NCBI GenBank assembly: GCA_964363945.1
Contig: CAYIKF010000004.1
Location: 1-32,432, forward strand
From: an uncultured Gammaproteobacteria bacterium
GTDB lineage: Bacteria; Patescibacteriota; Microgenomatia; UBA8517; JACQJR01
Length of the DNA stretch: 32,432 nucleotides
Reading direction: 5' to 3'
The notes under the pieces were generated by a model. That model ran no database searches and had not been told where the DNA came from. It worked only from the letters and a program-made list of their open reading frames with translations. Every line of letters starts with the position of its first letter. The stretch's first letter is position 1. Positions 4,666 to 22,405 of the stretch are shown one piece after another. Made by a program: the position numbers and the translations under genes.

Positions 4666-6597
4666 ATGAGTACTATTGTAACGAATTTAAATCCCCGCCA
4701 ACAAGAGGCGGTCACTTTTTTTGGGGGACCATTACTTATCTTAGCAGGCGCGGGAAGCGGCAAAACACGCGTCCTCACCCACCGTGCAGCCTGGTTAATC
4801 AAAGAAAAAGGTATTCCTTCTGAAAATCTTATCTTGGTAACCTTCACCAATAAAGCAGCAGGCGAGATGAGAGAAAGAATAAAAAAATTACTAACCACTA
4901 ATCACCCCGCCGAAGGCGAGGCTCGCCAAGGGCGGCAATCACTAATCACTCCTCCCCTTGCCTGCACTTTCCATTCCTTTTGTGCACGAGTACTACGCTC
5001 TTATGGCGAGAATATCAGCGTCCCGCGTCACTTTGTCATTTATGATGAAAATGACCAGCAAGAGGCAATAAAAGAGGTACTCACAAAGCTCGGTATGGGA
5101 GTGACCGCCATTAAACCCTCTTCAGTGCTTACGGTAATTTCTCAAGCAAAGAATGAAATGGTAACTGCAGAAGAGTATGCGCAGCTTTCTCGGGGGGAAT
5201 GGCAGCGGCACGTTGCAGTGGTATATCAGGAGTATGAGAAACTGTTGCGCGAGGTGGGGGCGTGCGATTTCGATGATCTCCTGCTTTTGGTTATCAAACT
5301 CTTTGAAGAACACCCCGATATTCGTGAGCGGTATCAAAAAATTTATCAGTATGTACTTGTTGACGAATGGCAAGATACCAATCGCGCGCAATACCGCTTG
5401 ACAAAACTCCTTGCAAAAGAACACCACAATCTGACAGTGGTAGGCGATGCCGCACAAAGTATATACAGTTGGCGGGGCGCAGACTATCGAAATATCGAAT
5501 ACCTTATGCGCGACTTCCCGGACATCACCGTTATTAACCTTGAGCAAAACTACCGCTCAACCCAGACAATTCTTGATGCCGCCTTCCATGTCATATCAAA
5601 AAACAGAACCCATCCAATCCTTAAACTGTGGACAAAAAATGATAAAGGCGAAAAAATAACGCTCTACCAAGCGCATAGTGAGCTTGAGGAAGCAGCATTC
5701 GTGGTAAGCGAAATTGAAAACCTAATAACCTACTCACCTAATAGCCCAATAACCTCTTCCTATCGTGATTTCGCGGTATTGTATCGTACCAATGCCCAAT
5801 CACGCGTGCTTGAGGAAGCAATGCTGCACGCTGGTATTCCTTATGTATTAATCGGGGGAGTACGGTTTTATGAGCGCAAAGAAGTAAAGGACATGCTTGC
5901 ATACCTGCGTCTCTTGGTTAATCCAAAGGATTCTGTATCACAAAAAAGGGCCGAGAAACTAGGTAAAAATCGTCTGAAAAAATTCACAACACTACGCCAA
6001 TCATTAGATGATAACCTTACTACGCTCGAGATTCTCGACAGTGTACTTGACACCACCGGATATCTTAATCTTTACGACACGGATGACCCAGAAGATGCCG
6101 CCCGACTGGAAAATATCAAAGAGTTGCGCTCTGTTGCGGCGGAATTTCCCGATGTGTACGAATTCTTGGAACAAGTCGCCCTGGTTGAGACAGCACAGAC
6201 TAGTAAAGGAGTTATACGTGATGCGGACCACCTGCCAGCGTCTGAGCGCAGCAATGGCGGGCAGGTAACACTCATGACCGCCCATGCCGCAAAGGGACTG
6301 GAGTTTCCAATTGTTTTTATCGTTGGTTTAGAAGAAGGCCTTTTCCCCCATAGTCGGGCGTTTGAGAGAGTTGAGGAACTGGAAGAAGAGCGTCGACTTT
6401 GTTATGTGGGAATCACTCGGGCAAAACAAAAACTATTTCTTACCTTTGCTGACCGACGCTTACTTTTTGGTCAGCGAACCAGTAATATTCCTTCTCGTTT
6501 TTTATCAGATATTCCAGAGGAACTATTTGAACAACCCGTTTCTTTTACACAAACACCAACATGGTCATGGCTAGACAAAACGAGCTACGAGGATTAG
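4666..6597 (+). CDS. pcrA: ATP-dependent SF1A DNA helicase PcrA/UvrD
   Basis: LAGAGSGKT, TFTNKAA, VDEWQDTN, GDAAQSIYSWRGA, NYRS, TAHAAKGLEF, EEERRLCYVGITRA; ATG 4666 preferred over TTG 4660. Confidence 0.95.
   Translation: MSTIVTNLNPRQQEAVTFFGGPLLILAGAGSGKTRVLTHRAAWLIKEKGIPSENLILVTFTNKAAGEMRERIKKLLTTNHPAEGEARQGRQSLITPPLACTFHSFCARVLRSYGENISVPRHFVIYDENDQQEAIKEVLTKLGMGVTAIKPSSVLTVISQAKNEMVTAEEYAQLSRGEWQRHVAVVYQEYEKLLREVGACDFDDLLLLVIKLFEEHPDIRERYQKIYQYVLVDEWQDTNRAQYRLTKLLAKEHHNLTVVGDAAQSIYSWRGADYRNIEYLMRDFPDITVINLEQNYRSTQTILDAAFHVISKNRTHPILKLWTKNDKGEKITLYQAHSELEEAAFVVSEIENLITYSPNSPITSSYRDFAVLYRTNAQSRVLEEAMLHAGIPYVLIGGVRFYERKEVKDMLAYLRLLVNPKDSVSQKRAEKLGKNRLKKFTTLRQSLDDNLTTLEILDSVLDTTGYLNLYDTDDPEDAARLENIKELRSVAAEFPDVYEFLEQVALVETAQTSKGVIRDADHLPASERSNGGQVTLMTAHAAKGLEFPIVFIVGLEEGLFPHSRAFERVEELEEERRLCYVGITRAKQKLFLTFADRRLLFGQRTSNIPSRFLSDIPEELFEQPVSFTQTPTWSWLDKTSYED
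4890..4950. repeat. ACTAATC heptamer array interrupted by a 30-bp GC-rich palindromic element (4906-4935)
   Basis: actaacc actaatc ac[CCCGCCGAAGGCGAGGCTCGCCAAGGGCGG]caatc actaatc act; removing the bracket restores the 7-nt phase. Confidence 0.88.
5721..5755. repeat. Octamer tandem array (CCTAATAA-like, 4 units) in pcrA
   Basis: cctaataa cctactca cctaatag cccaataa cct; encodes NLITYSPNSPITS. Confidence 0.75.
6230..6266. repeat. CCTGCC-type palindromic insertion in pcrA
   Basis: ACCTGCC agcgtctgagcgcagcaatggcg GGCAGGT (7-bp perfect inverted repeat); encodes HLPASERSNGG just before VTLMT. Confidence 0.78.
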
Positions 6598-7577
6598 ACA
6601 AAGTCACTCACCCTTTACAATCGCGGGAGTGGGGAGAGTTTAGAGAGAAAACTGGTGTTGAAGTTGTAAGAGGTAAAGACCTGCCTGCGCAGGCAGGCTT
6701 TCAACTCACAATCCATAAAATCCCATATACCCCATGGTCAATTGGCTACCTTCCCAAAGGACCACTTCCGACAAAACAGACCATCGACGAATTAAAAAAG
6801 ATTGGAGAAGAAAATAGGTGTATTTTTATTCAGCTTGAACCCAATATAGAACGATTTAAGAATTATGATTTAAGATTTAAGAATTTAGGATTACGAACAT
6901 CAATCCGTCCACTTTTTACAAAATACAACTTCGTTATTGATTTGACAAAAAGCGAAGAAGAATTACTTGCAGCAATGCATCCGAAAACCCGATATAATAT
7001 CCGAGTTGCCCAAAAACATGGTGTAACGGTTAAAGAAAGAACAGACGACGAAGCGTTTAAAATTTACTTAAAGCTCTATTTCGAAACAACAAAACGCCAA
7101 AAATATTTCGGCCATACACCAGAGTATCATCGTTTGCTCTGGCAAACTCTAAATGAAAATTTAAAATTGAAAATTGAAAATTCTGATAGGGTTATTCCTC
7201 ATTTGCTAATCGCCTCCTACAAAGGCATTCCACTCACAGCATGGCTGCTCTTACAGTACAAGGATACCCTTTATTATCCCTATGGCGGCTCATCAGAAGA
7301 ACATAAAAACGTCATGGCAAGTAACCTTATTATGTGGGAAGCAATAAAACTTGGAAAAAAATTAGGTTGTAAAACGTTCGATCTCTGGGGCGCCCTCAGC
7401 CCAAATCCAGATCCAAAAGACCCATGGTATGGATTTCATCGATTTAAACAAGGTTATGGCGGGCGACTTGTAGAATATGTTGGAAGTTATGATCTCGTCT
7501 TAAATCCGCTTCTTTACTGGGGGTTTCATTTAATTGATAAACTGCGTTGGATAGTTTTACGCTTAAGGCCTCTCTAA
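6561..7577 (+). CDS. FemAB/FemX-family peptidoglycan bridge aminoacyltransferase
   Basis: HPLQSREWG, YLPKGP, KTRYNIRVA, YYPYGGS, FDLWG, GFHRFKQGYGG; start could be 6561 or 6567 and overlaps the pcrA 3' end. Confidence 0.9.
   Translation: MVMARQNELRGLDKVTHPLQSREWGEFREKTGVEVVRGKDLPAQAGFQLTIHKIPYTPWSIGYLPKGPLPTKQTIDELKKIGEENRCIFIQLEPNIERFKNYDLRFKNLGLRTSIRPLFTKYNFVIDLTKSEEELLAAMHPKTRYNIRVAQKHGVTVKERTDDEAFKIYLKLYFETTKRQKYFGHTPEYHRLLWQTLNENLKLKIENSDRVIPHLLIASYKGIPLTAWLLLQYKDTLYYPYGGSSEEHKNVMASNLIMWEAIKLGKKLGCKTFDLWGALSPNPDPKDPWYGFHRFKQGYGGRLVEYVGSYDLVLNPLLYWGFHLIDKLRWIVLRLRPL
6680..6697. repeat. Perfect 18-bp palindrome CCTGCCTGCGCAGGCAGG, in frame (LPAQAG)
   Basis: Self-reverse-complementary; 6677-6697 matches 8016-8036 with 1 mismatch. 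Confidence 0.93.
6853..6887. repeat. GATTTAA heptamer array (5 units) in the femAB-like gene
   Basis: gatttaa gaattat gatttaa gatttaa gaattta; encodes RFKNYDLRFKNL. Confidence 0.88.
7152..7184. repeat. GAAAATT heptamer array in the femAB-like gene
   Basis: aat gaaaatt taaaatt gaaaatt gaaaatt ct; encodes NENLKLKIENS; identical to 1259-1291. Confidence 0.92.
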
Positions 7578-7602
7578 TTCTATTTTTTATCTTACACTAT
7601 TA

Positions 7603-7639
7603 TCCGCCTTCGTCCGCCAGCTAGCGAACTTCGGCGGGA
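7603..7639. repeat. Nested GC-rich CCGCC..GGCGG hairpin between convergent genes (possible terminator)
   Basis: tCCGCC ttc[gtccgccagctagcgaac]ttc GGCGGga; the inner stem pairs on the minus strand with two G-U pairs; abuts the stop codon at 7640-7642. Confidence 0.7.
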
Positions 7640-10555
7640 TTACGGCTTGTAGCCTCCACAAAACATTTTATATTCACAATTTTGACATAAAATTGAGCCG
7701 GAGCAGGTAAAGTCACTTGTTGCGATTTCTTGGGATACTTTGAGTATCTCTTGTTTTGCAGCGTTAAGTTGCTCTTGCGTCCGTGTTGTTGTTAATTTCT
7801 TTCCTCCCTCGAAAAAATAAAGAGAAAGTGTGAGATCCTCCGGTCTTCTTGCAAACGGCTCCTCTTTTACCTCTGTGCCAGCTAGAGCATACACTGTTAA
7901 TTGTAAATCATCTGCTAATTCTTTATCGGACGGGAGTTTTGCTCCTGTTTTATAATCAATGATTTCTATGCCATTCTTAGTTTTATCCACTCTGTCAATC
8001 TTGCCGCCGATTTTCAGACCTGCCTGCGCAGGCGGGTTTTCTATACGAAACACAAAGGGATGTTCCATAAGAATTGGGACATGTCGAGGATTAAACTCAT
8101 CTTTAAAATACTCCTCAAGGTATCCATACCCTCTTTTTTTCATTAAGCTCTCATGTTGTTTGGAGGAGTAACCCTCACGAATCCAATTCCCCCCATATAA
8201 CTTCCTAAGCTCATCAAGCGTTCCCTTTTTTCGTGCTTTGACGGTGCTATAAAAATCAGCTATTGTTTTATGAAGTGTTATCCCAAAACTTTGTGCTGCT
8301 GAAGGAGTAACAGGAACTCGGACGATATATTTTAACTTGTAATGAAGCGGGCATACTTTAAATTCTTGTATTTGTGAATAGGAAAGATAGGTAACAGGAA
8401 TTCTCACTATTTTTTCTTGCTCAACTTCGTGATCGCCCTTTGCCCACTCAAGGAGTGAAAGCTGGGTAGTTGGTGATTGGTGATCAGTGATTGGTGATTG
8501 GTTAATTGCATCAGTACCCAATGCTTCAAGAACAAAGGGCGAAAGTTTTCTTTCGCGTTTTCCTTCACCGTAATAATTAGCAGCTGTTAAAAATAATCGG
8601 TCGCGTGCGCGTGTCATCCCGACATAAAAAAGTCTTCGTTCCTCCTCGATATGATAATCACCTACCGGCAAGTCTTCTTTGATTAACTCTTCAGGAATAG
8701 GAATTTGTTCTCTGCGCTCATAGGTCGGAAAACGACCGGCAACAAGATTAACTAAAAACACAATAGGAAATTCAAGGCCTTTTGAGGAGTGAACTGTTAA
8801 GATGTACACCGCGTTAAGTCTATCCCAATCAATATCAACTGCTTGCGGTGACTCTCCCAATTCCATTGAAAGCCCAATCCAATCAACGACCGCCGTAATA
8901 CTTGCGTCCTCATGTTCTGTTTCATATGTTTTAAGTTTGTCAAAAAAACGGCTAATATTCTGAGTGCGGCGTTCTTCGAGCTGACTTTCTGGTTTTGCCA
9001 ATTTAGCTAACAGTCCTGTATCCTCAAGAAAATAAAACAAAAGTTGTCCTGCAGTCTCGCGTCGGGCTGCCTTTAAGTGTCTATTGACCATTGCGATAAA
9101 TTTATCAATTGCTTCCTTTGTCTCTTTCCTAACAAAGATTTTGTTGACATCCTCACATGCCTCAAAGAGCGAAAGATTAAAACGCCTCGCATAGTTCATA
9201 ATCGCAGCCAAATCACGTGCAGGGATATCGAAATGGTCCATGGAGAGCACGCGGTAAAGTGATATTGAATCTTCAAAGTTGTATAAAACTTTAAGATAAG
9301 CAATTAAATCTTTTATTTCTTCTTGGCGGAATAACTGACCAGGACCCAAAAATTGGAAGGGAATACCGGCTCGAGAAAATGCACGAGTGAAGGCTTCTGC
9401 ATGGTTATTGGCCCGGACTAAAATAGCAAAATCAGAGAAACTCTTATCTCCTTTTTGGACCAAAGAAAGAATTGTTTTTGCCACACGATCTGCTTCGTTC
9501 TCAACTCTGTCTGTATATAAAAATTCAATCTGTTCCCCTTTTTTCTTTCGTGCAGAAACAAGTTTTTTATCAATCTTTTCTTTTACCTCAAGTCTGTCTG
9601 GATTGTTGTGTTGAACAAGTTGATATGCTCTGTCTAGAATCTCTTGGGTTGAACGATAATTCTCGGTTAGGGTAATAATCTTTGCTTTTGGAAAGTGTTT
9701 GCGAAATTGCATCACATTTGAAACCGCTGCGCCCCGAAATCTGTAAATGCTTTGGTCATCGTCTGCTACGGCTGTAATGTTCGCCCGTTTTCCCGCAAGT
9801 AAAATTGCTAACTCATTTTGAGCATAGTTTGTATCTTGGAATTCATCAACTAAAATGTATTTAAATTGTTCTTTATACCGTTTCAAAATGGCAGGACGAC
9901 GCCGAAAAAGGAGTAGTGCGTTGGTAATTAAATCACCGAAGTCCATAACTCCCTCTTTTACCTTTAACTCTGTGTATTTCTGATACGCTTTTGCCAACTC
10001 CACATACTTTTCAATTTCCTCTTTTTCATACTTTTCGCTTTTAGCTTTTCGCTTTTCGCCCACCCACTTTATGTAATCAGTGGGCGTCACATCCTCATCC
10101 TGGAGTCGAGAAAAATGCTGCAGCATTCCACCAACAAATTTTGTTGGATTGCCTAGAGGTCTAAAGTAGGAAAGCTCAAAAGAAAAAAGATTGGCTCGTA
10201 TAAGTTGTGTTGCTTCCGCTTCTGTTAAGAGGCGGTAATTCGTTGGCAATCCAATAGCAAGCGCTTCAGTACGCAAAATCCGATCGCAAAACGCATGGAA
10301 GGTTGATATCCACATTTGGGTATAGCCATAGGGGACTGCAATATCAACACGCTCCTCCATCTCACGTGCCGCCTTTTCAGTAAAGGTAAGAGCTAGAATC
10401 TCAGAGGGCAACGCTTGCTCTGTGACAATCAAATGTTTAATTCGTTCTGTTACAACCGTGGTCTTCCCCGTCCCCGCACCAGCAATAATCAACAGCGGCC
10501 CACCTTTGTAGGTCACTGCTTGTTGCTGCTCTTTATTAAGTTCAATATCATCCAT
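7640..10555 (-). CDS. UvrD-family helicase fused to a C-terminal PD-(D/E)XK (RecB/AddA/AdnAB-like) nuclease with a putative 4-Cys Fe-S site
   Basis: AGAGTGKT, VDEFQDTN, TVHSSKGLEF, EEERRLFYVGMTRA; C-terminus SYSQI..CPLHY, GKIDRVD, IIDYKTG, QLTVYA, CQNCEYKMFC. Confidence 0.93.
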   Translation of the reverse strand: MDDIELNKEQQQAVTYKGGPLLIIAGAGTGKTTVVTERIKHLIVTEQALPSEILALTFTEKAAREMEERVDIAVPYGYTQMWISTFHAFCDRILRTEALAIGLPTNYRLLTEAEATQLIRANLFSFELSYFRPLGNPTKFVGGMLQHFSRLQDEDVTPTDYIKWVGEKRKAKSEKYEKEEIEKYVELAKAYQKYTELKVKEGVMDFGDLITNALLLFRRRPAILKRYKEQFKYILVDEFQDTNYAQNELAILLAGKRANITAVADDDQSIYRFRGAAVSNVMQFRKHFPKAKIITLTENYRSTQEILDRAYQLVQHNNPDRLEVKEKIDKKLVSARKKKGEQIEFLYTDRVENEADRVAKTILSLVQKGDKSFSDFAILVRANNHAEAFTRAFSRAGIPFQFLGPGQLFRQEEIKDLIAYLKVLYNFEDSISLYRVLSMDHFDIPARDLAAIMNYARRFNLSLFEACEDVNKIFVRKETKEAIDKFIAMVNRHLKAARRETAGQLLFYFLEDTGLLAKLAKPESQLEERRTQNISRFFDKLKTYETEHEDASITAVVDWIGLSMELGESPQAVDIDWDRLNAVYILTVHSSKGLEFPIVFLVNLVAGRFPTYERREQIPIPEELIKEDLPVGDYHIEEERRLFYVGMTRARDRLFLTAANYYGEGKRERKLSPFVLEALGTDAINQSPITDHQSPTTQLSLLEWAKGDHEVEQEKIVRIPVTYLSYSQIQEFKVCPLHYKLKYIVRVPVTPSAAQSFGITLHKTIADFYSTVKARKKGTLDELRKLYGGNWIREGYSSKQHESLMKKRGYGYLEEYFKDEFNPRHVPILMEHPFVFRIENPPAQAGLKIGGKIDRVDKTKNGIEIIDYKTGAKLPSDKELADDLQLTVYALAGTEVKEEPFARRPEDLTLSLYFFEGGKKLTTTRTQEQLNAAKQEILKVSQEIATSDFTCSGSILCQNCEYKMFCGGYKP
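8019..8036. repeat. 18-bp near-perfect palindrome CCTGCCTGCGCAGGCGGG, in frame (PPAQAG on the minus strand)
   Basis: Second copy of 6680-6697; removal gives IENLKIGGKID. Confidence 0.92.
8463..8504. repeat. TTGGTGA heptamer array (6 units) in the helicase-nuclease linker
   Basis: tgggtag ttggtga ttggtga tcagtga ttggtga ttggtta; encodes NQSPITDHQSPTTQ; the reverse-complement unit TCACCAA matches the pcrA array unit. Confidence 0.9.
10031..10058. repeat. CTTTTCG heptamer array (4 units)
   Basis: cttttcg cttttag cttttcg cttttcg; encodes GEKRKAKSEK. Confidence 0.88.
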
Positions 10556-10613
10556 GTCTCGTAAAGTATACAGCAGCTGTCTTGTAGTTTGAAGCTATGT
10601 GTGAGGACTATTG

Positions 10614-10686
10614 CGGAGTTTTTGTTCTTTGCTGAATCAATTCGTGTGCAAAGCGAATAAGTTCTTTTGCTCCAACAAAACTACCG
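10614..10686. repeat. Structured intergenic element downstream of the putative DGR target gene
   Basis: Imperfect terminal inverted repeat cggagtttttgtt / aacaaaactaccg, inner ATTCG..CGAAT stem (10640-10658), direct repeat GTTCTTT(T)GCT at 10624 and 10661. Confidence 0.55.
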
Positions 10687-10695
10687 AGAAATCAA

Positions 10696-11481
10696 TTACC
10701 CAGTCTTTTTAACTTTCACTACCCAACGAGCGGCCCCGAGAAAGGCATCGGCCCTGTAAGCATTCCAGTCAGGGACGTAAGGACCATAAACGGCAAAGAA
10801 GTGGCCGACAATGGCAATGAAGGGGCCAGATTTATTGATAGGAGTATTAGTTCGAATGTAGCGCCAATATCGAGTTTCTGGATTTGGATCACGATAATCT
10901 TCGCCAAGTAAACGGACACCTGTGGCGTCAAAATGTTTAAACATGACTTCAGTAACCTCTGGAGCTTCAGGTAAAATCTCCTCTAAGCCTTCTATCCCAA
11001 GTCTTGCTTGCAGTTCTTGCCCATCTTTTTTTACTAGTTCCTCTTGTGTTGCTTTTAACTGACTAAAGGTACCAGGAACAAAAAATCTTTCTGGGTCAGG
11101 ATAAATAGCTACCTCCATTATTCTTGAAGGTGTAGTAAGTACTCTTTTTGCGGAAACCACATGCAAAAACCTTCTCCCACCTTCTTTTTGACCTTGGATT
11201 TTTTGTCCCTCCAAGGTATACACTAGTGCTCCATCTGTTCTGAGCTTTTCTTTATCCTCATCAGTAAATGGTTCAAAGCTAAATCCTGTTTCAACAGTAA
11301 CTAATCCTTCGCTTGTGGGAGATGAAGCTACTTTAGGTAATCTGGTAGAAAGCCAACCTTTTTTGACGGCAAAATCAATAGCTCTTCTTAAAGATTGTAA
11401 AATTGCAGCAGCTTCCAGACCTTCAAGTCCAGCTGCTCGTCTTTCGTCTTGAGCAATAATATCTCTTATTTCTTTTGCCAT
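10696..11481 (-). CDS. Hypothetical protein, candidate DGR target with a C-type-lectin-like variable C-terminus
   Basis: 261-aa ORF with its own promoter; C-terminus VGHFFAVYGPYVPDWNAYRADAFLGAARWVV; 32 of 35 codons in 10726-10830 end in C/T and none ends in A. Confidence 0.72.
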   Translation of the reverse strand: MAKEIRDIIAQDERRAAGLEGLEAAAILQSLRRAIDFAVKKGWLSTRLPKVASSPTSEGLVTVETGFSFEPFTDEDKEKLRTDGALVYTLEGQKIQGQKEGGRRFLHVVSAKRVLTTPSRIMEVAIYPDPERFFVPGTFSQLKATQEELVKKDGQELQARLGIEGLEEILPEAPEVTEVMFKHFDATGVRLLGEDYRDPNPETRYWRYIRTNTPINKSGPFIAIVGHFFAVYGPYVPDWNAYRADAFLGAARWVVKVKKTG

Positions 11482-11490
11482 ACGGCTTGT

Positions 11491-11520
11491 ATACTATCAC
11501 TCTCGTGGGTTCATTGTCAA
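11491..11520 (-). promoter_or_regulatory. Sigma70-type promoter for 10696-11481
   Basis: Minus strand TTGACA-18 nt-TAGTAT with a TGn extension, 9 nt before the ATG. Confidence 0.65.
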
Positions 11521-11540
11521 ATCTGGCAGGAACCTAACAC

Positions 11541-12650: not shown

Positions 12651-12657
12651 CCCTGAA

Positions 12658-12666
12658 ATTTTACCA
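12658..12666 (-). promoter_or_regulatory. Extended -10 for rmuC (leaderless candidate)
   Basis: Minus strand TGG-TAAAAT, 7 nt before the ATG at 12650; no SD. Confidence 0.6.
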
Positions 12667-12680
12667 GAATAGGATTAAAA

Positions 12681-12718
12681 TAACAATTAACCATATAGCT
12701 ATTTAACCATCAAACTAT
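12681..12718. repeat. Octamer array (AACCATnn-like) running into the start codon of the small membrane gene
   Basis: taacaatt aaccatat agctattt aaccatca aactAT(G). Confidence 0.6.
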
Positions 12719-12959: not shown

Positions 12960-12987
12960 TCAATTAAAACTATTCAGGACCTGGTCA

Positions 12988-13016
12988 TTGACTAATTAAA
13001 ACTCCTATGGTAAACT
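12988..13016 (+). promoter_or_regulatory. Sigma70-type promoter
   Basis: TTGACT-17 nt-TAAACT with a TGn extension, 9 nt before the ATG at 13026. Confidence 0.7.
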
Positions 13017-13025
13017 TCGCGCGAA

Positions 13026-13426: not shown

Positions 13427-13453
13427 GCTAACTAGTTAATTAGTGAATTAGAT

Positions 13454-14890: not shown

Positions 14891-14898
14891 ACGATTAT

Positions 14899-14927
14899 TT
14901 GCAAGAAAAGGCCAATAAGATTACAAT
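14899..14927 (+). promoter_or_regulatory. Sigma70-type promoter
   Basis: TTGCAA-17 nt-TACAAT, which implies the true start is ATG 14938 rather than TTG 14899. Confidence 0.6.
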
Positions 14928-14937
14928 TACACTTGAT

Positions 14938-16443
14938 ATGGTACGTCAATTACTTGACCATCATGAAAGTAAATTTCAACGAATGCTCGAAATTTTGCCG
15001 GGGAGCTTGGCGTGGGGAATCATCTTCTTTCCAGCAATAGGCGGATTCTTCATACCTGAAGTCGTTGCATATGCTGTAATAATTTTCCTTGCTTATTGGT
15101 TCTACCGTTCTTTCCAGTCGGCAATCTTGGGAGTGAGAGGCTATTTTTTACTAAAAACTTGGGAAAAGACTAATTGGCAAAAAAAATGGCAAAGCTTTAA
15201 GGGTTATAAAGTTGCTTGGGATGAAATTAAACACGTAATCCTTATCCCAAATTATAACGAATCGGCAGAAAAAATAGCCGGGACGCTAAACTCACTCGCT
15301 AGTCAAAAACAAATCGACCTTAAAAGTTTACTCGTGTTTTTAGCGATGGAGGAAAGGGCTCAGGACTCCCCAGAGCGAGCAAAAAAACTTCTGAAGGAAT
15401 TTCGTGGCAAGTTTGGAGGACTTTACACGACATTTCATCCTGACGGAATAGTCGGCGAAGTGCGAGGAAAGGCCTCAAATGAAGCATGGGCGGCAAAGGA
15501 AGCTAAAAAAATTCTTGATAAAGGAAGTATTGATATTAAAAATGTAACCGCGACCTCCTGTGATGCCGACACAAACTTTCATTCGCTCTATTTTGCTAGC
15601 CTAACTTATTATTTTGCGACAAATAGTTCTCGTTACCTTCGCTTCTGGCAATCGCCTATCTTTTGGTACAACAACCTAGCACGCATCCCCTTCCCAATCA
15701 GGATTGTTGGTGTAATTGGACACGCAATTCACTTGGCGTCGCTTCAGGAACCTACAAGGCTTATTTTTAACTATTCTTGTTATTCGCTCTCATTTAAATT
15801 ACTAAACGATGTTGGCTACTGGCACACAGATATTATTCCTGAAGACTGGCACCTTTTCTTACAAACATTTTTTGCGAAGAAAGGGAAAATTGAGGTAGAA
15901 CCACTTTTTTTGCCAACAAGCATTGATGCGGCAGAATCAAAAACGTGGCTTGGTTCTTTGAAGAACAGATACGAGCAATGCAAACGCCATGCGTGGGGAG
16001 CAACAGACATCGCATATGCTGTCAAAGAGGCAATAAGACATCCTGAGATACCCCGTTTAACTCGCTTTCTTCGCATTTATAAATTAATTGAAACCCATCT
16101 TATTTGGTCAACAAATTGGTTTATACTAACGCTTGGTGCCACCTTGCCCGTAATCCTTAATCCTGCATTTTCTCGCACAGCGCTTGGATACAACTTACCA
16201 AAGCTTGCAGAAAGTGTACTTACTATTTGTTTGGTGGCACTTTTGGTTATGATTGCACTTGACTTCTTGCTACGACCTCAACACGCACGACCCAAAAATT
16301 TCTTTGCCGTAGTGCGAGAAGTACTTCAGTGGGTAACGCTTCCTCTCTCAACACTGACTATGTCAGTCATCCCCGGTCTTGACTCCCAAACCCGTCTCAT
16401 GTTCGGCCGCCGCCTCGAATATAGAGTAACTGAGAAGGTGTAA
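14938..16443 (+). CDS. Membrane GT2-family glycosyltransferase (cellulose-synthase-like catalytic motifs)
   Basis: IPNYNE, GKASN, CDADT, IIPEDW, QCKRHAWG (a QxxRW variant); TMs at both ends. Confidence 0.88.
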   Translation: MVRQLLDHHESKFQRMLEILPGSLAWGIIFFPAIGGFFIPEVVAYAVIIFLAYWFYRSFQSAILGVRGYFLLKTWEKTNWQKKWQSFKGYKVAWDEIKHVILIPNYNESAEKIAGTLNSLASQKQIDLKSLLVFLAMEERAQDSPERAKKLLKEFRGKFGGLYTTFHPDGIVGEVRGKASNEAWAAKEAKKILDKGSIDIKNVTATSCDADTNFHSLYFASLTYYFATNSSRYLRFWQSPIFWYNNLARIPFPIRIVGVIGHAIHLASLQEPTRLIFNYSCYSLSFKLLNDVGYWHTDIIPEDWHLFLQTFFAKKGKIEVEPLFLPTSIDAAESKTWLGSLKNRYEQCKRHAWGATDIAYAVKEAIRHPEIPRLTRFLRIYKLIETHLIWSTNWFILTLGATLPVILNPAFSRTALGYNLPKLAESVLTICLVALLVMIALDFLLRPQHARPKNFFAVVREVLQWVTLPLSTLTMSVIPGLDSQTRLMFGRRLEYRVTEKV

Positions 16444-16458
16444 ACTCTATTTCACTTT

Positions 16459-16467
16459 TGCTACAAT
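16459..16467 (+). promoter_or_regulatory. Extended -10 (leaderless candidate)
   Basis: TGC-TACAAT, 6 nt before the ATG at 16474. Confidence 0.65.
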
Positions 16468-16473
16468 AAATTA

Positions 16474-17772
16474 ATGCCCAATCAATTTACTGCTAGTCTT
16501 TGGGGAGATGAGGCATTTTCGGCAATTTTGGCACAAAAACCCCTTTGGGAAATTGTAACAACCTTAGTTCGCGACACATCACCTCCTGGATACTATTTTG
16601 TTGAACATTTCTGGCTGCAGGTTTTCGGAACTTCGGAAGTTGCAATCCGCAGCCTTTCCTTTGTTTTATTTTTAATAACTGTCTTTTTTGTCTACAAAAT
16701 TGGCGCCCTCGTCTGGGATAAAAAAACAGGGATTGTGGCCGCCATGCTCACATTTCTTAATCCATTCTTATTTATTTATGCTTTTGAAGGACGAATGTAC
16801 ATGATTATGACAGCAGGAGTCACTGCTTCAATGTATTTTTTCCTCACACGGAATTGGGTCTTTTATATTATCGCAACAACTATCGCTCTTTATTCTCACC
16901 ACTTTGCCATCTTTGCCGTCTTTGTCCAGGGATTATGGTTCTTAAAGGAATTGGCAATTGGAAATTGGAAATTGGTAATTCCAATGCTTAAGGCATTTTT
17001 AGTCATAGCATTGGCTTACCTCCCTTGGGTTTATCCGCTCTATTCACAGACACGCATGGTAGGAGCTGGTTTCTGGTTAGGTAAACCGAGCCTCCGAGAC
17101 GCGTGGGAACTCATTCGCAAGTTCTTAACTGAGGCCTCACCTCATAAACTTGCGACGCCTATCCTTTACCTTTTTTGGGTTACTCTTCTTTTCCGTCGTT
17201 GGGAGCGCAACAAGGAAATGACTCTATTTTTCCTCGCGTGGTTCTTGATACCCATAGCACTAACGTATCTTATATCGCAACAGTTTCAATCAATATTTTT
17301 TGACAGATACATGCTTTATACTATTCCTGGCGCGATGCTTGTCCTGGCATCCAATAGGCGACGGATATCAGAGGCACTTCTGGTCTTTGCAGTAATTCTC
17401 CTTTTTATAATTAATTGGTTCTACTTTACACATCCTACAAAACGTCCATTTCGGGAGCTTGCAACGTATGTAAAACAAACCCAAAAACCAGGCGATTTCT
17501 TAGTAAACCATAACGCTGCCGCCCACCATCTTTGGGAATCAAAGTATTACGGTATCCCAGCACCACTTTGGGTTCCTGAAGGAGAGCTTCCCTTTTATGT
17601 GGGCACCGCTTTAATGGAAAAAGAGGATACCGTTCGCACTATTCCCGACGCTACACGTATTGGCATCATTACGAGTGGCAATCTTGCAGAGATAAATCTT
17701 GTAGGCTATACTCAAAAAGAGACGAAATCGTTTGGGCCACTAACCTTTGCATGGTATGAAAAACATCCTTAA
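16474..17772 (+). CDS. GT-C glycosyltransferase (PMT_2/ArnT-like)
   Basis: SLWGDEAFS, DTSPPGYY, EVAIRSLS, EGRMY; polytopic. Confidence 0.88.
   Translation: MPNQFTASLWGDEAFSAILAQKPLWEIVTTLVRDTSPPGYYFVEHFWLQVFGTSEVAIRSLSFVLFLITVFFVYKIGALVWDKKTGIVAAMLTFLNPFLFIYAFEGRMYMIMTAGVTASMYFFLTRNWVFYIIATTIALYSHHFAIFAVFVQGLWFLKELAIGNWKLVIPMLKAFLVIALAYLPWVYPLYSQTRMVGAGFWLGKPSLRDAWELIRKFLTEASPHKLATPILYLFWVTLLFRRWERNKEMTLFFLAWFLIPIALTYLISQQFQSIFFDRYMLYTIPGAMLVLASNRRRISEALLVFAVILLFIINWFYFTHPTKRPFRELATYVKQTQKPGDFLVNHNAAAHHLWESKYYGIPAPLWVPEGELPFYVGTALMEKEDTVRTIPDATRIGIITSGNLAEINLVGYTQKETKSFGPLTFAWYEKHP
16949..16980. repeat. AATTGGN heptamer array (4.5 units)
   Basis: aattggc aattgga aattgga aattggt aatt; encodes ELAIGNWKLVI. 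Confidence 0.88.
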
Positions 17773-19249
17773 CAACATATCTAGGGAAATCCACCTTCCT
17801 ATCTGGCTTATTACCCTCCTTGTCATTGTATTTCTTCTGCGCATTCCCTCATTTTTTGAACCTTACTGGTATGGAGATGAACAAATTTACTTGACACTTG
17901 GTCAGGGCATCGGGAAAGAACTCCTTCTATATCGTGACCTCTACGATAACAAACCACCGCTCTTGTATCTTGTCGCCGCGATAGCAGGCAACCTCTTTTG
18001 GTTCAAAGTCATTCTTGGCTTTTGGAGTATTACCACAATTGTGCTCTTTTATAAACTTGCGCAACTACTTTGGGCAGGGAACGAGCGGGTAGTGCGGTAC
18101 GCGACCATTACTCTTACCCTCCTTACCACCATCCCTCTTCTTGAAGGAAACATTGCAAACGCAGAACTCTTTATGATACTTCCTACTATTGCAAGCTTTC
18201 TTATTCTTCTGTCAGGAAGGATAAACCCTCGCCGAGTATTCATTGCGGGAATGGTCGCAGGCATTGGCGTGCTCTTTAAAGTACCCTCACTCATTGACAT
18301 AGGCGTACCGGTTGTACTTTGGTATGCAATATGGACCCTCCGTCGCATGAAGTTTAGCCAGTGGGTAGCGCAGAGCGGCCTCTTTGTCGCAGGGGCGGTT
18401 TCGCCCATCCTCTTATCTGTCATTTTCTTTGCAATTGCTGGCGCAGCCCGTGAATACATCAGTGCGGCGTTCCTGCAAACAGTGGGGTACTTGTCAAGTT
18501 GGCGGGTAGCCGAGGGAGGCTTCTTTACTCGTAATCAACCTCTTATTATGCGATTGGCCATTGGTGCTGTTGTCATCGCGATGCTACTTAGGCTCTATCA
18601 GCGGCATCGTGTCTCCCGGTCTTTTCTTTTTGCGAGCACATGGTTTGTCCTCTCTCTTTTTGCCGCATTACTCTCTGAGCGTCCCTATCCACACTACCTC
18701 ATCCAGGTAGTTCCCAGTTTTTCGCTGCTTGTCGGAGTAACCCTTGCCGCCAACGCAAGAGAACAGTTTTATCCCTACCCTCTCTTTGCGCTCTTGGGCG
18801 CCGCACTTATATTCTATAAGTTCACCTATTACGCCGTGTTTCCGTACTATGAGAATTTCCTCGGGTGGGTAATGAAGCGACAAACTGATACACAGTTCTT
18901 CTCACGCTTTGACCAGCGCACGCCCCGCAATTATGAAATTGCGCAATTTCTTACCCAAAGTGCGCAAGAGGATGACCGGCTGTTTGTATGGGGAGACGAG
19001 CCAGAGCTCTATGCACTCTCTCACCTCACGCCTGCTACACGGTATGTCGCCAGCTATCATGTGAAGGATTTAAGGGTATTTGATGAAGTTGCAGAGTCGC
19101 TACAATCCAACCCTCCTCGATTTATTGTCACTACTGGAAGTGAGTTAGAATTCCCTCAACTTGCCACGCTCCTAAACCTTCAGTATGTGCTGGTAAACTA
19201 CGTCCAGAATGCGCGTATCTGGCTTCATGTTGCCATCAACAAAGAATGA
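17756..19249 (+). CDS. GT-C glycosyltransferase (ArnT/PMT-like)
   Basis: WYGDEQIY, LYRDLYDNKPPLLY, NAELF, YPHY, LFVWG; ATG 17756 preferred. Confidence 0.87.
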   Translation: MKNILNNISREIHLPIWLITLLVIVFLLRIPSFFEPYWYGDEQIYLTLGQGIGKELLLYRDLYDNKPPLLYLVAAIAGNLFWFKVILGFWSITTIVLFYKLAQLLWAGNERVVRYATITLTLLTTIPLLEGNIANAELFMILPTIASFLILLSGRINPRRVFIAGMVAGIGVLFKVPSLIDIGVPVVLWYAIWTLRRMKFSQWVAQSGLFVAGAVSPILLSVIFFAIAGAAREYISAAFLQTVGYLSSWRVAEGGFFTRNQPLIMRLAIGAVVIAMLLRLYQRHRVSRSFLFASTWFVLSLFAALLSERPYPHYLIQVVPSFSLLVGVTLAANAREQFYPYPLFALLGAALIFYKFTYYAVFPYYENFLGWVMKRQTDTQFFSRFDQRTPRNYEIAQFLTQSAQEDDRLFVWGDEPELYALSHLTPATRYVASYHVKDLRVFDEVAESLQSNPPRFIVTTGSELEFPQLATLLNLQYVLVNYVQNARIWLHVAINKE

Positions 19250-19599
19250 AAATTGCGCTCACCAGACATGCTGACCCCTTACTCAAAAGAGTGCTCATCA
19301 TTTCTCTCTTCTTGGATATCTTTCTCATTGCAGGCATAGGAGCAGTGTATCGCTATCTCCCCCCCGAAGTTCCTCTTCTCTATAGTGCGCCGTGGGGGAA
19401 AGCACAAATAGTTCCACGGAGTTTTCTCTTTTTGGTACCCGCCGCTGCAGTATTCTTTCTTGGATGTACCGTACTCATCGAACGCGTTCTCACAGATAAA
19501 GATACGCTAGTATTGAAAGTTCTCTGGGGTGGTTGCGCATTTGCAACATTCTTGGGAACTATCACTGTTATGCGTGTGATATTCTTGTTCTTATGGTAG
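19246..19599 (+). CDS. Small membrane protein (DUF1648-like)
   Basis: 3 TMs with LPPEVPLLYSAPWG; ATGA overlap with the upstream stop codon. Confidence 0.75.
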   Translation: MKIALTRHADPLLKRVLIISLFLDIFLIAGIGAVYRYLPPEVPLLYSAPWGKAQIVPRSFLFLVPAAAVFFLGCTVLIERVLTDKDTLVLKVLWGGCAFATFLGTITVMRVIFLFLW

Positions 19600-20648
19600 A
19601 AGGAGAATTTCTTTCATTCCTTCCGTTTGTCCTCTCCGCAATCATTGCGGCACTGGTCACCGCACTGGTTATTCGGACAGCTCCTTCTTTTGGTATCGTT
19701 GATAACCCAAGAAAAAGACAACATCCCGCAATCTTACATACGACACCGACTCCTCGCGGAGGGGGTATCCCTATCTTTGTAGCACTTCTCATTAGCACAC
19801 TTTTCTTTCTGCCTTTAAATCTCAAACTGGCGGGGATTATGGGAGGAGCGCTGTTGCTACTCGTGGTAGGAATAGCTGACGACCGACGGGATGTATCGCC
19901 ACTTTTTAGGTTAGTTGCGAATATTGTCGCTGCAGGAGCGGTGGTAGCAACAGGCATTACCATCCCTTTTATCACCAATCCCTTTGGGGGTATTATCAAT
20001 CTCAGTGTGAGCCCACTAATAGCTGCAATTGGCACAGTGGTGTGGATTGTTGCTATTACCAACATCGTCTCGTGGTCATCAGGAGTTGATGGACAACTTT
20101 CAGGATTTGTTCCCATAGCCGCTGCAACAATTGGAGGACTCTCTTTGCGATTCACGCAGGATATCACCGCGTGGCCTGCCGTCACCCTCTCGCTTATTGT
20201 GGGCGGGGCATACCTTGGTTTTTTGCTCTTTAGTGTTTATCCGCAACGTATTATGCCCGGCTACAGCGGGGGTGCACTGGCAGGATATCTACTCGCTGTT
20301 CTTGCCATCATTTCAGGAGCAAAGCTAGCAACTGCAATAATTGTGCTAGGCATTCCGGTGATGGACGCGCTGTTTGTCATTCTTCGACGCGTAGTTGGTG
20401 GAAAATCGCCTCTTTGGGCAGACGCGGGACACCTTCACCACCGCCTCCTTGCGGCTGGGTGGAACAAACCCCAAGTCGCCGCATTCTATTGGGGAGTTGC
20501 GGTAATCTTGGGTTTTTTAGTACTTCATTTGAATAGTCAAGCCAAATTCTATACAATCGTAATGCTTGCTGTAGTTACTGGAGGATTACTTTTGTGGTTA
20601 ACAAGATTAAGGCTCTTATTGCGTCAGCCCGGCCAACCCACTGGGTAA
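19593..20648 (+). CDS. WecA/TagO/MraY-family polyprenyl-phosphate sugar-1-phosphate transferase
   Basis: TPRGGG, GIADDR, SGVDGQ, ADAGHLHHRL; ATG 19593 preferred. Confidence 0.92.
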   Translation: MVEGEFLSFLPFVLSAIIAALVTALVIRTAPSFGIVDNPRKRQHPAILHTTPTPRGGGIPIFVALLISTLFFLPLNLKLAGIMGGALLLLVVGIADDRRDVSPLFRLVANIVAAGAVVATGITIPFITNPFGGIINLSVSPLIAAIGTVVWIVAITNIVSWSSGVDGQLSGFVPIAAATIGGLSLRFTQDITAWPAVTLSLIVGGAYLGFLLFSVYPQRIMPGYSGGALAGYLLAVLAIISGAKLATAIIVLGIPVMDALFVILRRVVGGKSPLWADAGHLHHRLLAAGWNKPQVAAFYWGVAVILGFLVLHLNSQAKFYTIVMLAVVTGGLLLWLTRLRLLLRQPGQPTG

Positions 20649-21508
20649 AAAATCTACTTCTGTTTGCGCCCCTTATTTTTTCCGGCAATCTCACAAATAG
20701 AGAACTCTTTATAGCGACCCTAGAGGCAGTCGCCATCTTCTCACTCGCGGTAAGCGGCATCTATATGTTCAATGACATTGTTGATAGAAACCGTGATCGT
20801 CTTCACCCTGTAAAACGTCGTCGGCCCATAGCACAGGGAACGCTCTCGCTTCCCATTGCGCTCTTTACAGCAACAGTATTTATCGTCAGTGCCCTTTTCT
20901 TAGCCTCATTTATCTCATTTTTCTTTCTTTTTGCACTTGTCGTTTATTTATTGCTCCAAGTAGGGTACACACTACTGTTTAAACACATTCCAGTCGCTGA
21001 CATTTTGGCAATTGCCGCAGGATTTGTGCTACGAGTATGGGCGGGTGCATTTGTCATTGATGTCCATCTCTCGGTGTGGTTTTTGTTGTGCGTCATTTCT
21101 ACCTCGCTTTTCTTGGCTGCAGGCAAGCGGAAAGCCGAACTTGCAATTCTTCACCAGTTTGGGAAAGTTCGGGAATTTGTGTATGAAACCACGCTACTGG
21201 ACGCCTTTCTTACTATGTTTGGAACGGCAACGTGGTTGTCCTGGGCATTGTTCACCTTCTTTGAACCATCACCTAATATTGGACTGCTCCCGTTATCATC
21301 CGATCTTCCTCTCACACTTGGAGGAATTGGGAAATGGCTCATGTTGACTATTCCCGTAGTCATCTTCGGTATTATGCGTTACCTCTTTATTGCGATGACG
21401 TTGACGCCGCTTGCTGAATCACCAGAGAGAACACTCATTCGTGACCGACAGTTACTCGGTGCAGTGGTGCTGTGGGGAGTGTTGTTAATACTTGTCCTCT
21501 ATTCCTAA
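20594..21508 (+). CDS. UbiA-family prenyltransferase, decaprenyl-phosphate phosphoribosyltransferase-like
   Basis: RPTHWVKNLL, YMFNDIVDRNRDRLHPVKRRRPIA, GFVLRV..G, GKRKAE, GIMRY, PE. Confidence 0.88.
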   Translation: MVNKIKALIASARPTHWVKNLLLFAPLIFSGNLTNRELFIATLEAVAIFSLAVSGIYMFNDIVDRNRDRLHPVKRRRPIAQGTLSLPIALFTATVFIVSALFLASFISFFFLFALVVYLLLQVGYTLLFKHIPVADILAIAAGFVLRVWAGAFVIDVHLSVWFLLCVISTSLFLAAGKRKAELAILHQFGKVREFVYETTLLDAFLTMFGTATWLSWALFTFFEPSPNIGLLPLSSDLPLTLGGIGKWLMLTIPVVIFGIMRYLFIAMTLTPLAESPERTLIRDRQLLGAVVLWGVLLILVLYS

Positions 21509-22336
21509 CTACTGCTCCACCTTTTTCGTATATTGGGCTGAAATCCAACCGGTTTTGCCTTCTTCGTACTCAATTTTGTACCAACTTTTATCTTCATTTT
21601 CTTCCAAGAGCGTGTACCGTTTTCCGGGCGTTACGCGTGCGCTCTCTGTAGCAGTAGTTGAAGGCTCTGTCCTCACTCGCAAAAACCCAGTCGGCGTTGT
21701 CAAAATCTCAACAAGCTGGATTTTTTGTTGGGTTGTCTCTTCCACCTTTTTCTCTTCTTGCGCTTCTGGGAGCTTGGCAAGCTTAGCAATAATGGTAAGT
21801 TTATATCCTGCTACTGTTTGAATGTTCATTTCGCGAGGGCTATACCCTTCAGCGCTTAACCGAAGCGTGTGTTGCCCCGGTTCGGCTTCTTCAATCTTCC
21901 GTGGGGTAAATCCAATTGTCTTGCCATCCAGTGAAATTTGTGCGGCATCAGGAGTTGATACAATTGCCACAGTTGCCACTCTTCCACCCATTTTTTCAAA
22001 AAGAAGCACTTCGCCAGACGATTCATCCTCTGTTGGGCCAAAACTTCGTTTAATTACCGTCTCTATGCCTGATACGAGCGTCACTTTTGTTTCAAAGGGC
22101 ACAAGCGGAGACCCTTGCGCAAAAGGAATGAGTTTGACCGTCACCTCGCTGGGACGTCTTTGCGCTCTGAAAGGGGTGGTACCCACTTGCTCTCCATCCA
22201 GAAAAACCGTTGCAGTCGGTTCTGTCTCAATTAAAATACCTGCCGAAGCTTGTGCAATCCTGCTACGGATAAAAAATAGTGCTGCCAACGCACCTGCTAG
22301 GAGTATTATCCCAATGAGAATAACCTTACGAGACAT
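21509..22336 (-). CDS. Membrane-anchored PEGA-domain protein with a C-terminal SH3-like domain
   Basis: TM; ETEPTATVFLDG..GTTP and STPDAAQISLDG..GFTP (two PEGA domains); GFLRVR..WYKI..GWIS (SH3b-like). Confidence 0.88.
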   Translation of the reverse strand: MSRKVILIGIILLAGALAALFFIRSRIAQASAGILIETEPTATVFLDGEQVGTTPFRAQRRPSEVTVKLIPFAQGSPLVPFETKVTLVSGIETVIKRSFGPTEDESSGEVLLFEKMGGRVATVAIVSTPDAAQISLDGKTIGFTPRKIEEAEPGQHTLRLSAEGYSPREMNIQTVAGYKLTIIAKLAKLPEAQEEKKVEETTQQKIQLVEILTTPTGFLRVRTEPSTTATESARVTPGKRYTLLEENEDKSWYKIEYEEGKTGWISAQYTKKVEQ

Positions 22337-22363
22337 ACAAAAACCCCAGTTCTACGGGGATAA

Positions 22364-22405
22364 CCTGCCTCGCTCGCCTCGCGTCGAAGCGGGCCGGCAG
22401 GCAGG
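22364..22405. repeat. 20-bp palindrome CCTGCCTGCCGGCAGGCAGG interrupted by a 22-bp GC-rich insert
   Basis: CCTGCCT[cgctcgcctcgcgtcgaagcgg]GCCGGCAGGCAGG, between the putative promoter and the ATG of the PEGA gene. Confidence 0.85.

Follow-up and report, generated by a model that had tools for sequence, protein, structure and literature searches.

Ultra-small GC-rich hairpins in and between the genes of a groundwater Patescibacteria genome appear to rank among the smallest mobile DNA yet found

Introduction

The small dispersed repeats (SDRs) numbered SDR4-6 of Nostocaceae, which Elhai et al. are said to have described in 2008, are reportedly dispersed hairpins of 21-27 nt that nest in one another, are tied to heptamer tandem repeats and sit inserted in conserved sequence. 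The Rickettsia palindromic elements (RPEs), which Ogata et al. are said to have reported in 2000, reportedly measure about 100-150 bp, lie in frame in protein genes and add tens of residues to the products. Elements of the insertion sequence (IS) group IS200/IS605, which transpose as single strands by 'peel and paste', need two hairpins, one close to either end, and enter the DNA 3' of a constant target of 4-5 nt. Repetitive extragenic palindromic sequences (REPs) are extragenic and possess a GTAG or CGTC tag at one end (PMC3733652), and their proposed mobile unit is a doublet, the REPIN (PMC3116915). Here we describe GC-rich palindromes and hairpins of 16-36 nt, several of them lying in frame within protein genes, in a stretch of 32,432 nt (contig CAYIKF010000004.1 of assembly GCA_964363945.1; the window, below) from a small groundwater bacterium of the Patescibacteria.

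Comparison of the window genome with its relatives indicates that these palindromes probably are insertion elements that move as units, and by their dimensions they would seem to be among the smallest mobile DNA yet found. The words mobile and non-autonomous are inferred here from comparison of genomes. The proposal came from an earlier note, which had read six elements from the letters of the window; all six were found in their places.

Occupied and empty sites

The genome that contains the window (G000; 645,885 b in 66 contigs, 43% G+C, 88% complete) was aligned as a whole with G001, a genome of the same genus (491,666 of 645,885 b covered, 86% identity), and was compared with G002, a genome of the same family, 42% of whose sequence is covered by the comparisons. 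The evidence is comparative throughout, and most of the genomes are metagenome bins. Loci are given as contig:position.

Between the two congeners twelve clean pairs of an occupied and an empty site were collected, six of them of 18 nt (C4:8018, C8:21350, C14:9007, C16:4298, C44:1256, C5:29889), four of 21 nt (C35:1670, C51:2857, C21:7559, C7:21229) and two of 30 nt (C4:4906, C25:4810). No target-site duplication is present in any of the twelve, and the left flanks of the clean insertions of the commonest 18-mer, family A with its variant B, form no target consensus (ATGA, GAGA, GCGA, TTTG, CAGA, AACT). On the scale of the whole alignment, 37 of the 145 indels of 15-48 nt are strongly folding hairpins, that is, they lie beyond the 1% tail of random controls (8/725); the additional bases belong to G000 in 18 cases and to G001 in 19, and 26 of the 37 have a length that is a multiple of three. 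Out of 20 A/B copies in G000, five are shared with G001, six are cleanly absent from it, four are diverged or replaced and five are in unalignable DNA.

Families of palindromes

The earlier note had taken its six elements for one related family. According to our analysis this does not hold: the window elements belong to at least four sequence families, which have in common only arms of the CC(Y)GCC...GGC(R)GG type. Family A is the 18-nt perfect palindrome CCTGCCTGCGCAGGCAGG, with 11 exact copies in G000 and 23 at up to three mismatches; these dispersed copies, together with the empty sites, support the idea of a very short mobile palindrome. Family P2 is a palindrome of 16 nt, TCCGCCAGCTGGCGGA, with 12-13 exact copies in G000, and family C, a 30-nt hairpin in two tiers, has four copies there. 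A census of the perfect palindromes of G000 (minimum stem 8, maximum loop 1) returned 74, among which P2 (11) and A (10) are by far the most repeated. The units range from 16 to 36 nt in length. A (2x9), P2 (2x8) and a CCGG-centred variant (2x10) are perfect palindromes of even length. Asymmetric variants such as CTTGCCTGCGCAAGCAGG and CCTGTCTGCGCAGGCAGG recur as whole units at many loci and in several genomes, and this argues that the units are copied whole and not assembled half by half.

A different repeat is an intergenic unit of 33 nt (TAAGCAGAGCTTGTTTCTCAC....TCAAAA) with about 27 occurrences in G000, often as two or three tandem copies directly upstream of start codons (for instance C3:27515-27568, C13:5776-5829, C13:9330-9410 and C17:9984-10037). 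It is a frequent indel between G000 and G001, one of them in G001 opposite window position 24705, and may act as a promoter or leader module, or else be a mobile repeat as well.

Elements in the window

The features of the window that concern us are the following.

1792..1812, minus strand: 21-nt hairpin CTCCGATTCGGAG, in frame in the open reading frame (ORF) 3-2444 (minus), adds ILRIGEF; absent in G001; beyond the earlier list
4896..4949, plus strand: heptamer (AATCACN) tract split by the 30-mer, CACTAATCAC / element / CAATCACTAATCAC
4906..4935, plus strand: family C, 30-nt two-tier hairpin CCCGCCGAAGGCGAGGCTCGCCAAGGGCGG, in frame in a UvrD/PcrA-type helicase gene, 4660-6597 (plus), adds PAEGEARQGR
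6231..6265, plus strand: GC-rich hairpin CCTGCC...GGCAGG in the same PcrA-type gene, reads LPASERSNGGQ
6680..6697: family A, exact 18-nt perfect palindrome CCTGCCTGCGCAGGCAGG, in frame in a FemAB-family gene, 6561-7577 (plus), adds LPAQAG
7603..7639, no strand: intergenic hairpin CCGCC...GGCGG, flanked by the convergent genes for FemAB and the helicase-nuclease
8019..8036: family A copy with one mismatch, CCTGCCTGCGCAGGCGGG, in frame in a UvrD-helicase/PD-(D/E)XK nuclease gene, 7640-10555 (minus), adds PPAQAG
22364..22405, no strand: intergenic A-like palindrome with a CCGG centre (CCTGCCT...CCGGCAGGCAGG) and a nested 23-nt hairpin at 22371-22393 (CGCTCGCCTCGCGTCGAAGCGGG)
26903..26921, no strand: 19-nt hairpin CGCGTTGAACGCG..., upstream of the likely start of a small minus-strand gene; absent in G001; beyond the earlier list

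The family assignments of the host genes (a FemAB-family protein, a UvrD-type helicase fused to a PD-(D/E)XK nuclease, and a UvrD/PcrA-type helicase) agree with those of the earlier note. The pattern proposed in the earlier note, CCTGCC-N(6-30)-GGCRGG, has eight matches on both strands, equal to five loci (6231, 6680, 8019, 20175 and 22364), against a mean of 0.03 in 100 shuffles of the 32-kb window, and the 18-mer at up to three mismatches has two matches against 0.01 expected. Single-strand folding is better than that of shuffled sequences in five of the six elements of the earlier list (z -2.0 to -2.7) and weak for 7603-7639 (z -0.64).

It was also correctly seen that the two 18-mers at 6680 and 8019 are identical in 20 of 21 nt, including the upstream AGA, and stand in genes on opposite strands as LPAQAG and PPAQAG. 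At 6680 G001 has a family A copy too, which makes two of the 30 aligned FemAB loci with the insert; the other 28 do not have it, and once it is removed, the length equals that of G002 residue for residue. At 8019 there is an exact 18-nt gap in G001, and the residues are missing in the proteins of both G001 and G002. The 30-mer at 4906 corresponds to an exact 30-nt gap in G001, where the heptamer tract is unbroken; in-silico excision leaves a junction that scores 18 for period 7. At 22371 the 23 nt are absent from G001, which keeps the outer palindrome only, and a related 21-mer is the indel at C7:21229. The orthologues simply do not have the residues, rather than keeping them with synonymous drift, the outcome by which the earlier note would have stood refuted. 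Excision lengths given in the earlier note thus stand as exact gaps in G001 for the 30-nt and 18-nt elements.

The case of 6231 is different: no empty allele of exactly the 33 nt that had been claimed was found among 29 relatives compared. The element has A-like ends, G001 holds the same length there with a diverged sequence, and the region is a length-variable linker in all 29 relatives, with G002 shorter by about 14 residues; the hairpin is possibly an old, decayed insertion. The intergenic hairpin at 7603 encloses, at 7613-7628, a P2 copy with two mismatches (TCCGCCAGCTAGCGAA), and G001 keeps its outer arms with an inside shorter by 10 nt. The 1792 hairpin is a member of the CCTCCGAGTCGGAGG group, met as indels of 21-36 nt at other loci, and that at 26903 is one of the 37 strongly folding indels.

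Some further features of the window were recorded. The match at 20175-20207 (CCTGCC...GGCGGG, coding DNA) contains no obvious palindrome and is probably due to chance. About 350 extra bases, not in the window, stand in G001 (C8) between the FemAB gene and the intergenic hairpin (window 7577-7603). Heptamer tandem repeats (AAAATTG, GGTGATT/AATCACC, CCTAATA) occupy coding regions at 7160-7185, 8457-8500 and 5720-5760, with copy numbers that differ from G001, and such repeats are the commonest 12-mers of G000; the run depth of 300-1700 at 7046-7179 points to a repeat common to many contigs.

Direction of change

The covered part of G002 spans 16 of the 45 GC-rich indels. In 12 of these, at least 60% of the element columns are gapped in G002; two are intermediate and two show no gap. 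Taken with the FemAB and helicase-nuclease sites, this suggests that insertion is the usual direction and not the sole one. A second view of the window is offered by a 17,351-nt contig from a separate study, run X3. It is about 99% identical to the window over 4500-6841 and 86-93% beyond 6912, a drop that points to recombination between strains. This contig is empty, without the 18 nt, at both 6680 and 8019, and it has no gap at 4906. The search for empty alleles in relatives, which the earlier note had advised, therefore succeeded at 8019, 4906 and 22371 in G001, at 6680 in 28 of 30 FemAB loci, and at 6680 and 8019 in the X3 contig.

Two loci weigh against insertion as a one-way process. The FemAB 18-mer is present in G000 and in the more distant G001 and is missing from the X3 contig, about 99% identical to the window; and the site C20:5079 is empty in G000, occupied by the CCGG-centred variant in G001 and by LPAQAG in G002. 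To explain these two cases, exact loss of copies, renewed insertion at hot spots, or the exchange of alleles among strains must operate as well.

Reading frame of the coding copies

We counted a copy as coding when it lies well inside an ORF of at least 120 codons. By this measure 48 of 60 A/B copies (at most two mismatches; G000, G001 and the covered part of G002) are coding, and 43 of the 48 read LPAQAG, three PACAG(R/K) and two CLRRQ; five of the 43 are orthologous sites of G000 and G001. In other species, 113 A loci among the matches listed gave 45 LPAQAG, 10 PACAG(R/K) and 8 CLRRQ, with 55 copies not confidently coding. A similar picture is seen in P2, for which 21 of 31 copies are inside ORFs and 14 of these 21 read PPAGG, and in C, where PAEGEARQGR is the reading of eight of the 12 coding copies from other species.

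No reading frame of family A, P2 or C contains a stop codon, and lengths are mostly multiples of three, so that copies within genes leave the protein unbroken and add 6-12 residues. ORFs of 120 codons or more take up 86-92% of these genomes, so that the palindromes show no avoidance of coding DNA; what is rare is just the two frames giving Cys-rich and Arg-rich peptides. A perfect palindrome offers the same three peptides on either strand of a gene, and an element with one bland frame can be tolerated in both orientations. Hosts of the inserts include helicases, a primase-like protein, cell-wall enzymes and pilins; in G002 two copies are found in one 611-codon ORF, called primase-like from residues read by eye. 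We infer that the frame bias reflects selection against copies in the other frames. Against this stands the observation that the bias is equally strong in polymorphic, presumably young, copies, which leaves selection and targeting not separated.

The same data may be read in another way, namely that the palindromes or their peptides serve the cell, as a protein-binding or DNA-uptake site, an RNA hairpin or an LPAQAG loop, and are kept and spread by selection and strain recombination. The bias of 43 in 48 would fit such a function, as would the letter-perfect preservation of the 18-mer and of the 29-mer core of family C across distant lineages, the fact that both changes defining variant B are synonymous in the LPAQAG frame, and the mosaic identity of the X3 contig, a sign that strains recombine. 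Yet the common variant CCTGTCTGCGCAGGCAGG is non-synonymous, 31 of 41 relatives have no A, and the exact blocks of 18-30 nt arise in unrelated proteins, variable loops, non-coding DNA and each other. The density is about one per 30-40 kb, and known uptake sequences are far denser. Recombination, moreover, moves alleles and cannot make a copy at a new site. We regard a selected motif as very improbable, and movement of the palindromes as units remains the reading that we prefer.

Insertion targets

If the palindromes insert as units, the places where they do so are not random in every respect. One 18-mer stands at the exact centre of another at four G000 loci; nestings are polymorphic between G000 and G001 at C14:312 and C26:4188, and in G002 an A-like palindrome with a decayed left half encloses an A. 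Heptamer tracts are a second kind of target. After in-silico excision, the junction has period 7 (score of at least 14, reached at 0.1% of random sites) in six of six C copies, five of 37 A, one of 30 P2 and one of five 21-nt hairpins, and also in seven of 17 C copies of other species. Since palindrome centres, heptamer tracts and tRNA-like DNA are all able to fold or slip, targeting directed by structure is suggested; the tolerance of linker regions for insertions would also explain the association with repeat tracts.

One heptamer-tract hot spot carries two different elements, an 18-mer in G000 (C9:2201) and a 39-nt palindrome (CCCGCCCGC...GCGGGCG) in G001 (C6:2755). In several genomes that are not related to one another, the 18-mer also occupies the D-arm region of a 5' tRNA fragment, partial or duplicated, with an intact tRNA gene close by (G000 C6:2263-2280; L137, L146, L147, L151, L201, L215 and L225); five records share a tRNA-Gln-like context. 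Its removal restores a second tRNA-Gln call in L147; for the tRNA-like fragment at C6:2263 ARAGORN gave no tRNA call, even after in-silico excision.

Exact nesting bears on a second alternative, in which the palindromes would be made de novo in the repair of a double-strand break: the same 8-10 nt are added to both 3' ends, which are then joined, and an even-length perfect palindrome results with no mobile copy or transposase. It would account for the perfect, even-length form of A, P2 and the CCGG-centred variant, their nesting exactly at palindrome centres and the missing target duplication, and it is in line with there being no cognate transposase next to any copy. It is harder to reconcile with the asymmetric variants, whose halves are not mirror images and which recur as whole 18-mers at many loci in several genomes, and with family C (30 nt) and the 21-23 nt hairpins, which are asymmetric and behave in the same way. 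Besides, a reverse transcriptase (PF00078) occurs in none of five carrier genomes (G000, G001, G002, G024, G077). We consider break repair unlikely, and insertion of ready-made units the better account of the nested and dispersed copies.

Distribution across lineages

Family A at up to one mismatch is present in 10 of 41 relatives, with 22 copies in G002, 15 in G000, 12 in G001 and 11 in G024, and a control with the reversed pattern, used for such counts across genomes, gave 0 in all 41. P2 is present in 12 of the 41 in another pattern (13 P2 and no A in G015, one P2 and 22 A in G002; control 0). In an even sample of the phylum, 10 of the 401 genomes contain exact A, and the blooms, with 15, 7, 6 and 4 copies, belong to scattered families (control 0). 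When one genome per species is taken, at least 113 stretches of other species contain exact A, mostly in many named groups of Patescibacteria, and the exact 29-nt core of family C is found in 17 stretches of other species. Among the matches listed, the A-bearing assemblies are many separate deposits, two of them titled as strains, and a few single hits in GC-rich genomes may be due to chance. Such patchy blooms of letter-perfect copies look like elements that spread horizontally.

These counts also speak to the possibility that library chemistry, assembly, or GC-rich loops alike by chance produced the whole picture. The carrier genomes are mostly metagenome bins, and palindromes can disturb both sequencing and assembly. 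Chance, however, is excluded by the shuffles and the reversed-pattern controls (0), the same copy is met at the same site in two separate genomes of one genus, copies appear in many separately deposited assemblies, two titled as strains, and they are in frame, nested and accompanied by variants. An artefact or coincidence is thus, on these data, scarcely credible.

In a Bacteroidota bin (L124, L142, L178, L184, L190, L208) the 18-mer forms the middle of larger non-coding palindromes such as GCGTGTTA-18mer-TAACACGC, which suggests a separate bloom outside Patescibacteria. Exact A was also seen in 25 viral stretches, most of 58-67% GC, where chance matches are likelier; the frames are 11 LPAQAG, 9 CLRRQ and 4 PACAGR, with 5 non-coding, and no Y1 transposase gene was found in these 25. 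On two viral contigs of about 60% G+C (L252:5704-6377 and L253:5599-6272) two 18-mers, each within an inverted 29-nt repeat, bound a segment of 656 nt, the 220-codon ORF of which matched no Pfam, PHROGs or NCBIfam family. This segment could be an autonomous relative or a coincidence.

Candidate mobilising enzyme

A palindrome of this size has no room for a gene, and we looked for an enzyme in the carrier genomes. Among six mobile-element families searched for, only the Y1 (HUH) tyrosine transposases (PF01797) occur in most carriers: they are present in 24 of 41 relatives, G000 included, and in four of five distant carriers. RVT_1 (PF00078), TnpB-type PF07282, Cas1 and DDE_Tnp_1 are each absent from all five carriers named above, and rve is present in one, G002. 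A Y1 gene is present in 10 of 11 relatives with at least three A or P2 copies, against 14 of 30 others; the genomes are kin, and the tally is only a hint for this reason.

Every Y1 gene has its own bracketing palindrome, short and of similar size, CACCTnnnAGGTG in G001 and G002, AAGGGGnCCCCTT in G000 and others elsewhere. G077 contains 14 copies of the 17-nt palindrome that brackets its Y1 gene; 12 lie elsewhere in the genome, mostly in non-coding DNA, and this indicates that genuine pairs of the kind formed by REPs and REP-associated tyrosine transposases (RAYTs), with very short GC-rich palindromes, exist in this phylum. One Y1 protein of the candidate phyla radiation (CPR) had as its sole NCBIfam match (E <=0.01) the REP-associated tyrosine transposase, with 26.9 bits where the cut-off is 80. 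In G000 itself, an IS200/RAYT-like Y1 gene of 231 codons lies at a contig end (C11:18289-18984), with AAGGGGTCCCCTT at its start and AAGGGGACCCCTT inside its 3' part; its 13-nt palindrome has about six copies in the genome.

Several observations tell against Y1 enzymes as the movers. The Y1 genes of G000, G001, G002, G037, G077, G271, G325, G361, L138 and L140 all lack flanking copies of A, P2 and C, the test in G000 being limited by a genome 88% complete and a Y1 gene that runs off the contig end; the link to REPs and RAYTs drawn in the earlier note is thus not borne out, Y1 genes being present in G000 and its relatives and none of them flanked by these palindromes. Y1 genes are also found in 16 of 31 relatives that have no A, and none was found in G101 (six A copies, 100% complete), G026 or G030. 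The differing left flanks speak against a fixed target of the IS200/IS605 kind, and to our knowledge a single 18-nt hairpin is smaller than any unit that HUH transposases move. When 113 A-bearing loci among the matches listed (830 kb) were searched by tblastn with 14 Y1 proteins, three Y1 genes were returned, a number too small for a verdict; two of these three have A within about 200 nt, and they possess 25-nt palindromes of their own, with A in the neighbouring gene. That Y1 enzymes move the palindromes is therefore possible and rather doubtful.

Discussion

From the data above we would suggest the following course of events. The window elements would be members of several families of GC-rich, hairpin-forming units of 16-36 nt without coding capacity, whose copies may arrive, and sometimes leave, as exact units without target-site duplication. 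They would land anywhere, genes included, with a preference for DNA that can fold or slip, such as the centres of other copies, heptamer tracts and the D-arm region of tRNA. The copies that we see would almost all read a bland peptide (LPAQAG for A, PPAGG for P2, PAEGEARQGR for C), those in other frames having presumably been removed by selection. The moving form may be a hairpin of single-stranded DNA on which a structure-specific enzyme, provided in trans, would act; the leading candidate for this enzyme would be the IS200/RAYT-like Y1 (HUH) tyrosine transposases. Taken as a whole, several families of ultra-small GC-rich hairpin insertion elements, with Y1 as the leading candidate, is in our opinion the probable explanation.

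A bolder statement can be put forward tentatively, and we lean slightly against it: that these palindromes represent a new minimal class of mobile DNA, made of single perfect palindromes of 16-20 bp and larger two-tier hairpins, inserted and excised seamlessly through recognition of structure, spread horizontally through the CPR and other phyla, and acting as a standing source of protein length variation by way of fixed hexa- to decapeptides (LPAQAG, PPAGG, PAEGEARQGR) in loops of essential proteins.

If palindromes of 16-30 nt do move as units, the lower size limit of mobile DNA would be about one hairpin, and it may be asked which enzyme moves such a unit without a scar. The hairpins make up a quarter of the mid-size length differences (37/145) between two congeners of about 0.7 Mb and would be a main source of their microdiversity, in a lineage that is thought to be streamlined and poor in mobile elements. 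The fixed peptides that they add to helicases, a primase-like protein, cell-wall enzymes and pilins alter these proteins, and caution is advisable in homology-based alignment and protein annotation of the organisms that carry the palindromes. The 18-mer and the 29-mer, as letter-perfect markers across many uncultured lineages, can be useful for strain tracking.

Comparison with known systems

A literature search of partial coverage, limited to main texts, found neither these sequences nor in-frame palindromes of Patescibacteria described. A number of described systems share one or another feature with them. With REPs and RAYTs they have in common short GC-rich palindromes in many dispersed copies, and Y1 genes with palindromes of their own are present in these genomes. 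Unlike REPs, they are mostly intragenic and their ends (CCTG/CAGG in A, TCCG/CGGA in P2, CCCG/GCGG in C) show no GTAG or CGTC tag; the unit is a single 18-mer and not a REPIN-like doublet. REP/RAYT membership fails on extragenic location, the end tag and a cognate flanked Y1 gene.

Like RPEs, the palindromes are inserted in frame into protein genes that are not destroyed. They differ in the host phylum and in size, 16-36 nt with 6-12 residues, and it is on size that membership fails; we know of no description of exact nesting at palindrome centres for RPEs. A miniature inverted-repeat transposable element is not a suitable class either, given that no target-site duplication accompanies the twelve clean pairs. 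Seamless presence and absence, no target duplication and dependence on a hairpin are reminiscent of IS200/IS605, whereas the single palindrome and the lack of a shared left flank are not, and a miniature derived from that group fails on the fixed target and the two-ended structure. IS1397 and its relatives are also reported to take the centre of a palindromic repeat as the insertion target; these are full-size insertion sequences with their own transposase, in contrast to the incoming 18-nt palindrome here. DNA uptake sequences are known for high density and origin by point mutation, and the 18-mer, with 15-23 copies per 0.65-0.8 Mb that arise as exact 18-nt blocks, does not belong with them.

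The closest match in behaviour is offered by the small dispersed repeats of Nostoc and relatives, an analogy made through descriptions. With them, on the features reported for SDRs, the palindromes appear to share very short non-coding hairpin repeats, nesting, heptamer tracts and insertion into conserved sequence, from which the mobility of SDRs is reportedly deduced. The commonest units here are perfect palindromes of 16-18 nt, compared with the 21-27 nt reported for SDRs, and the likeness is judged by description and not by sequence; the host is one of the Patescibacteria, and most copies are intragenic and in one frame. According to a later paper, the HIP1-enriched cyanobacterial genomes considered there yielded no SDR-like repeat outside Nostocaceae. 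Very small hairpin repeats are, in sum, a known kind of sequence, and what sets the present ones apart is their size, their clean presence and absence, a frame-filtered life in essential genes and a spread across the whole radiation.

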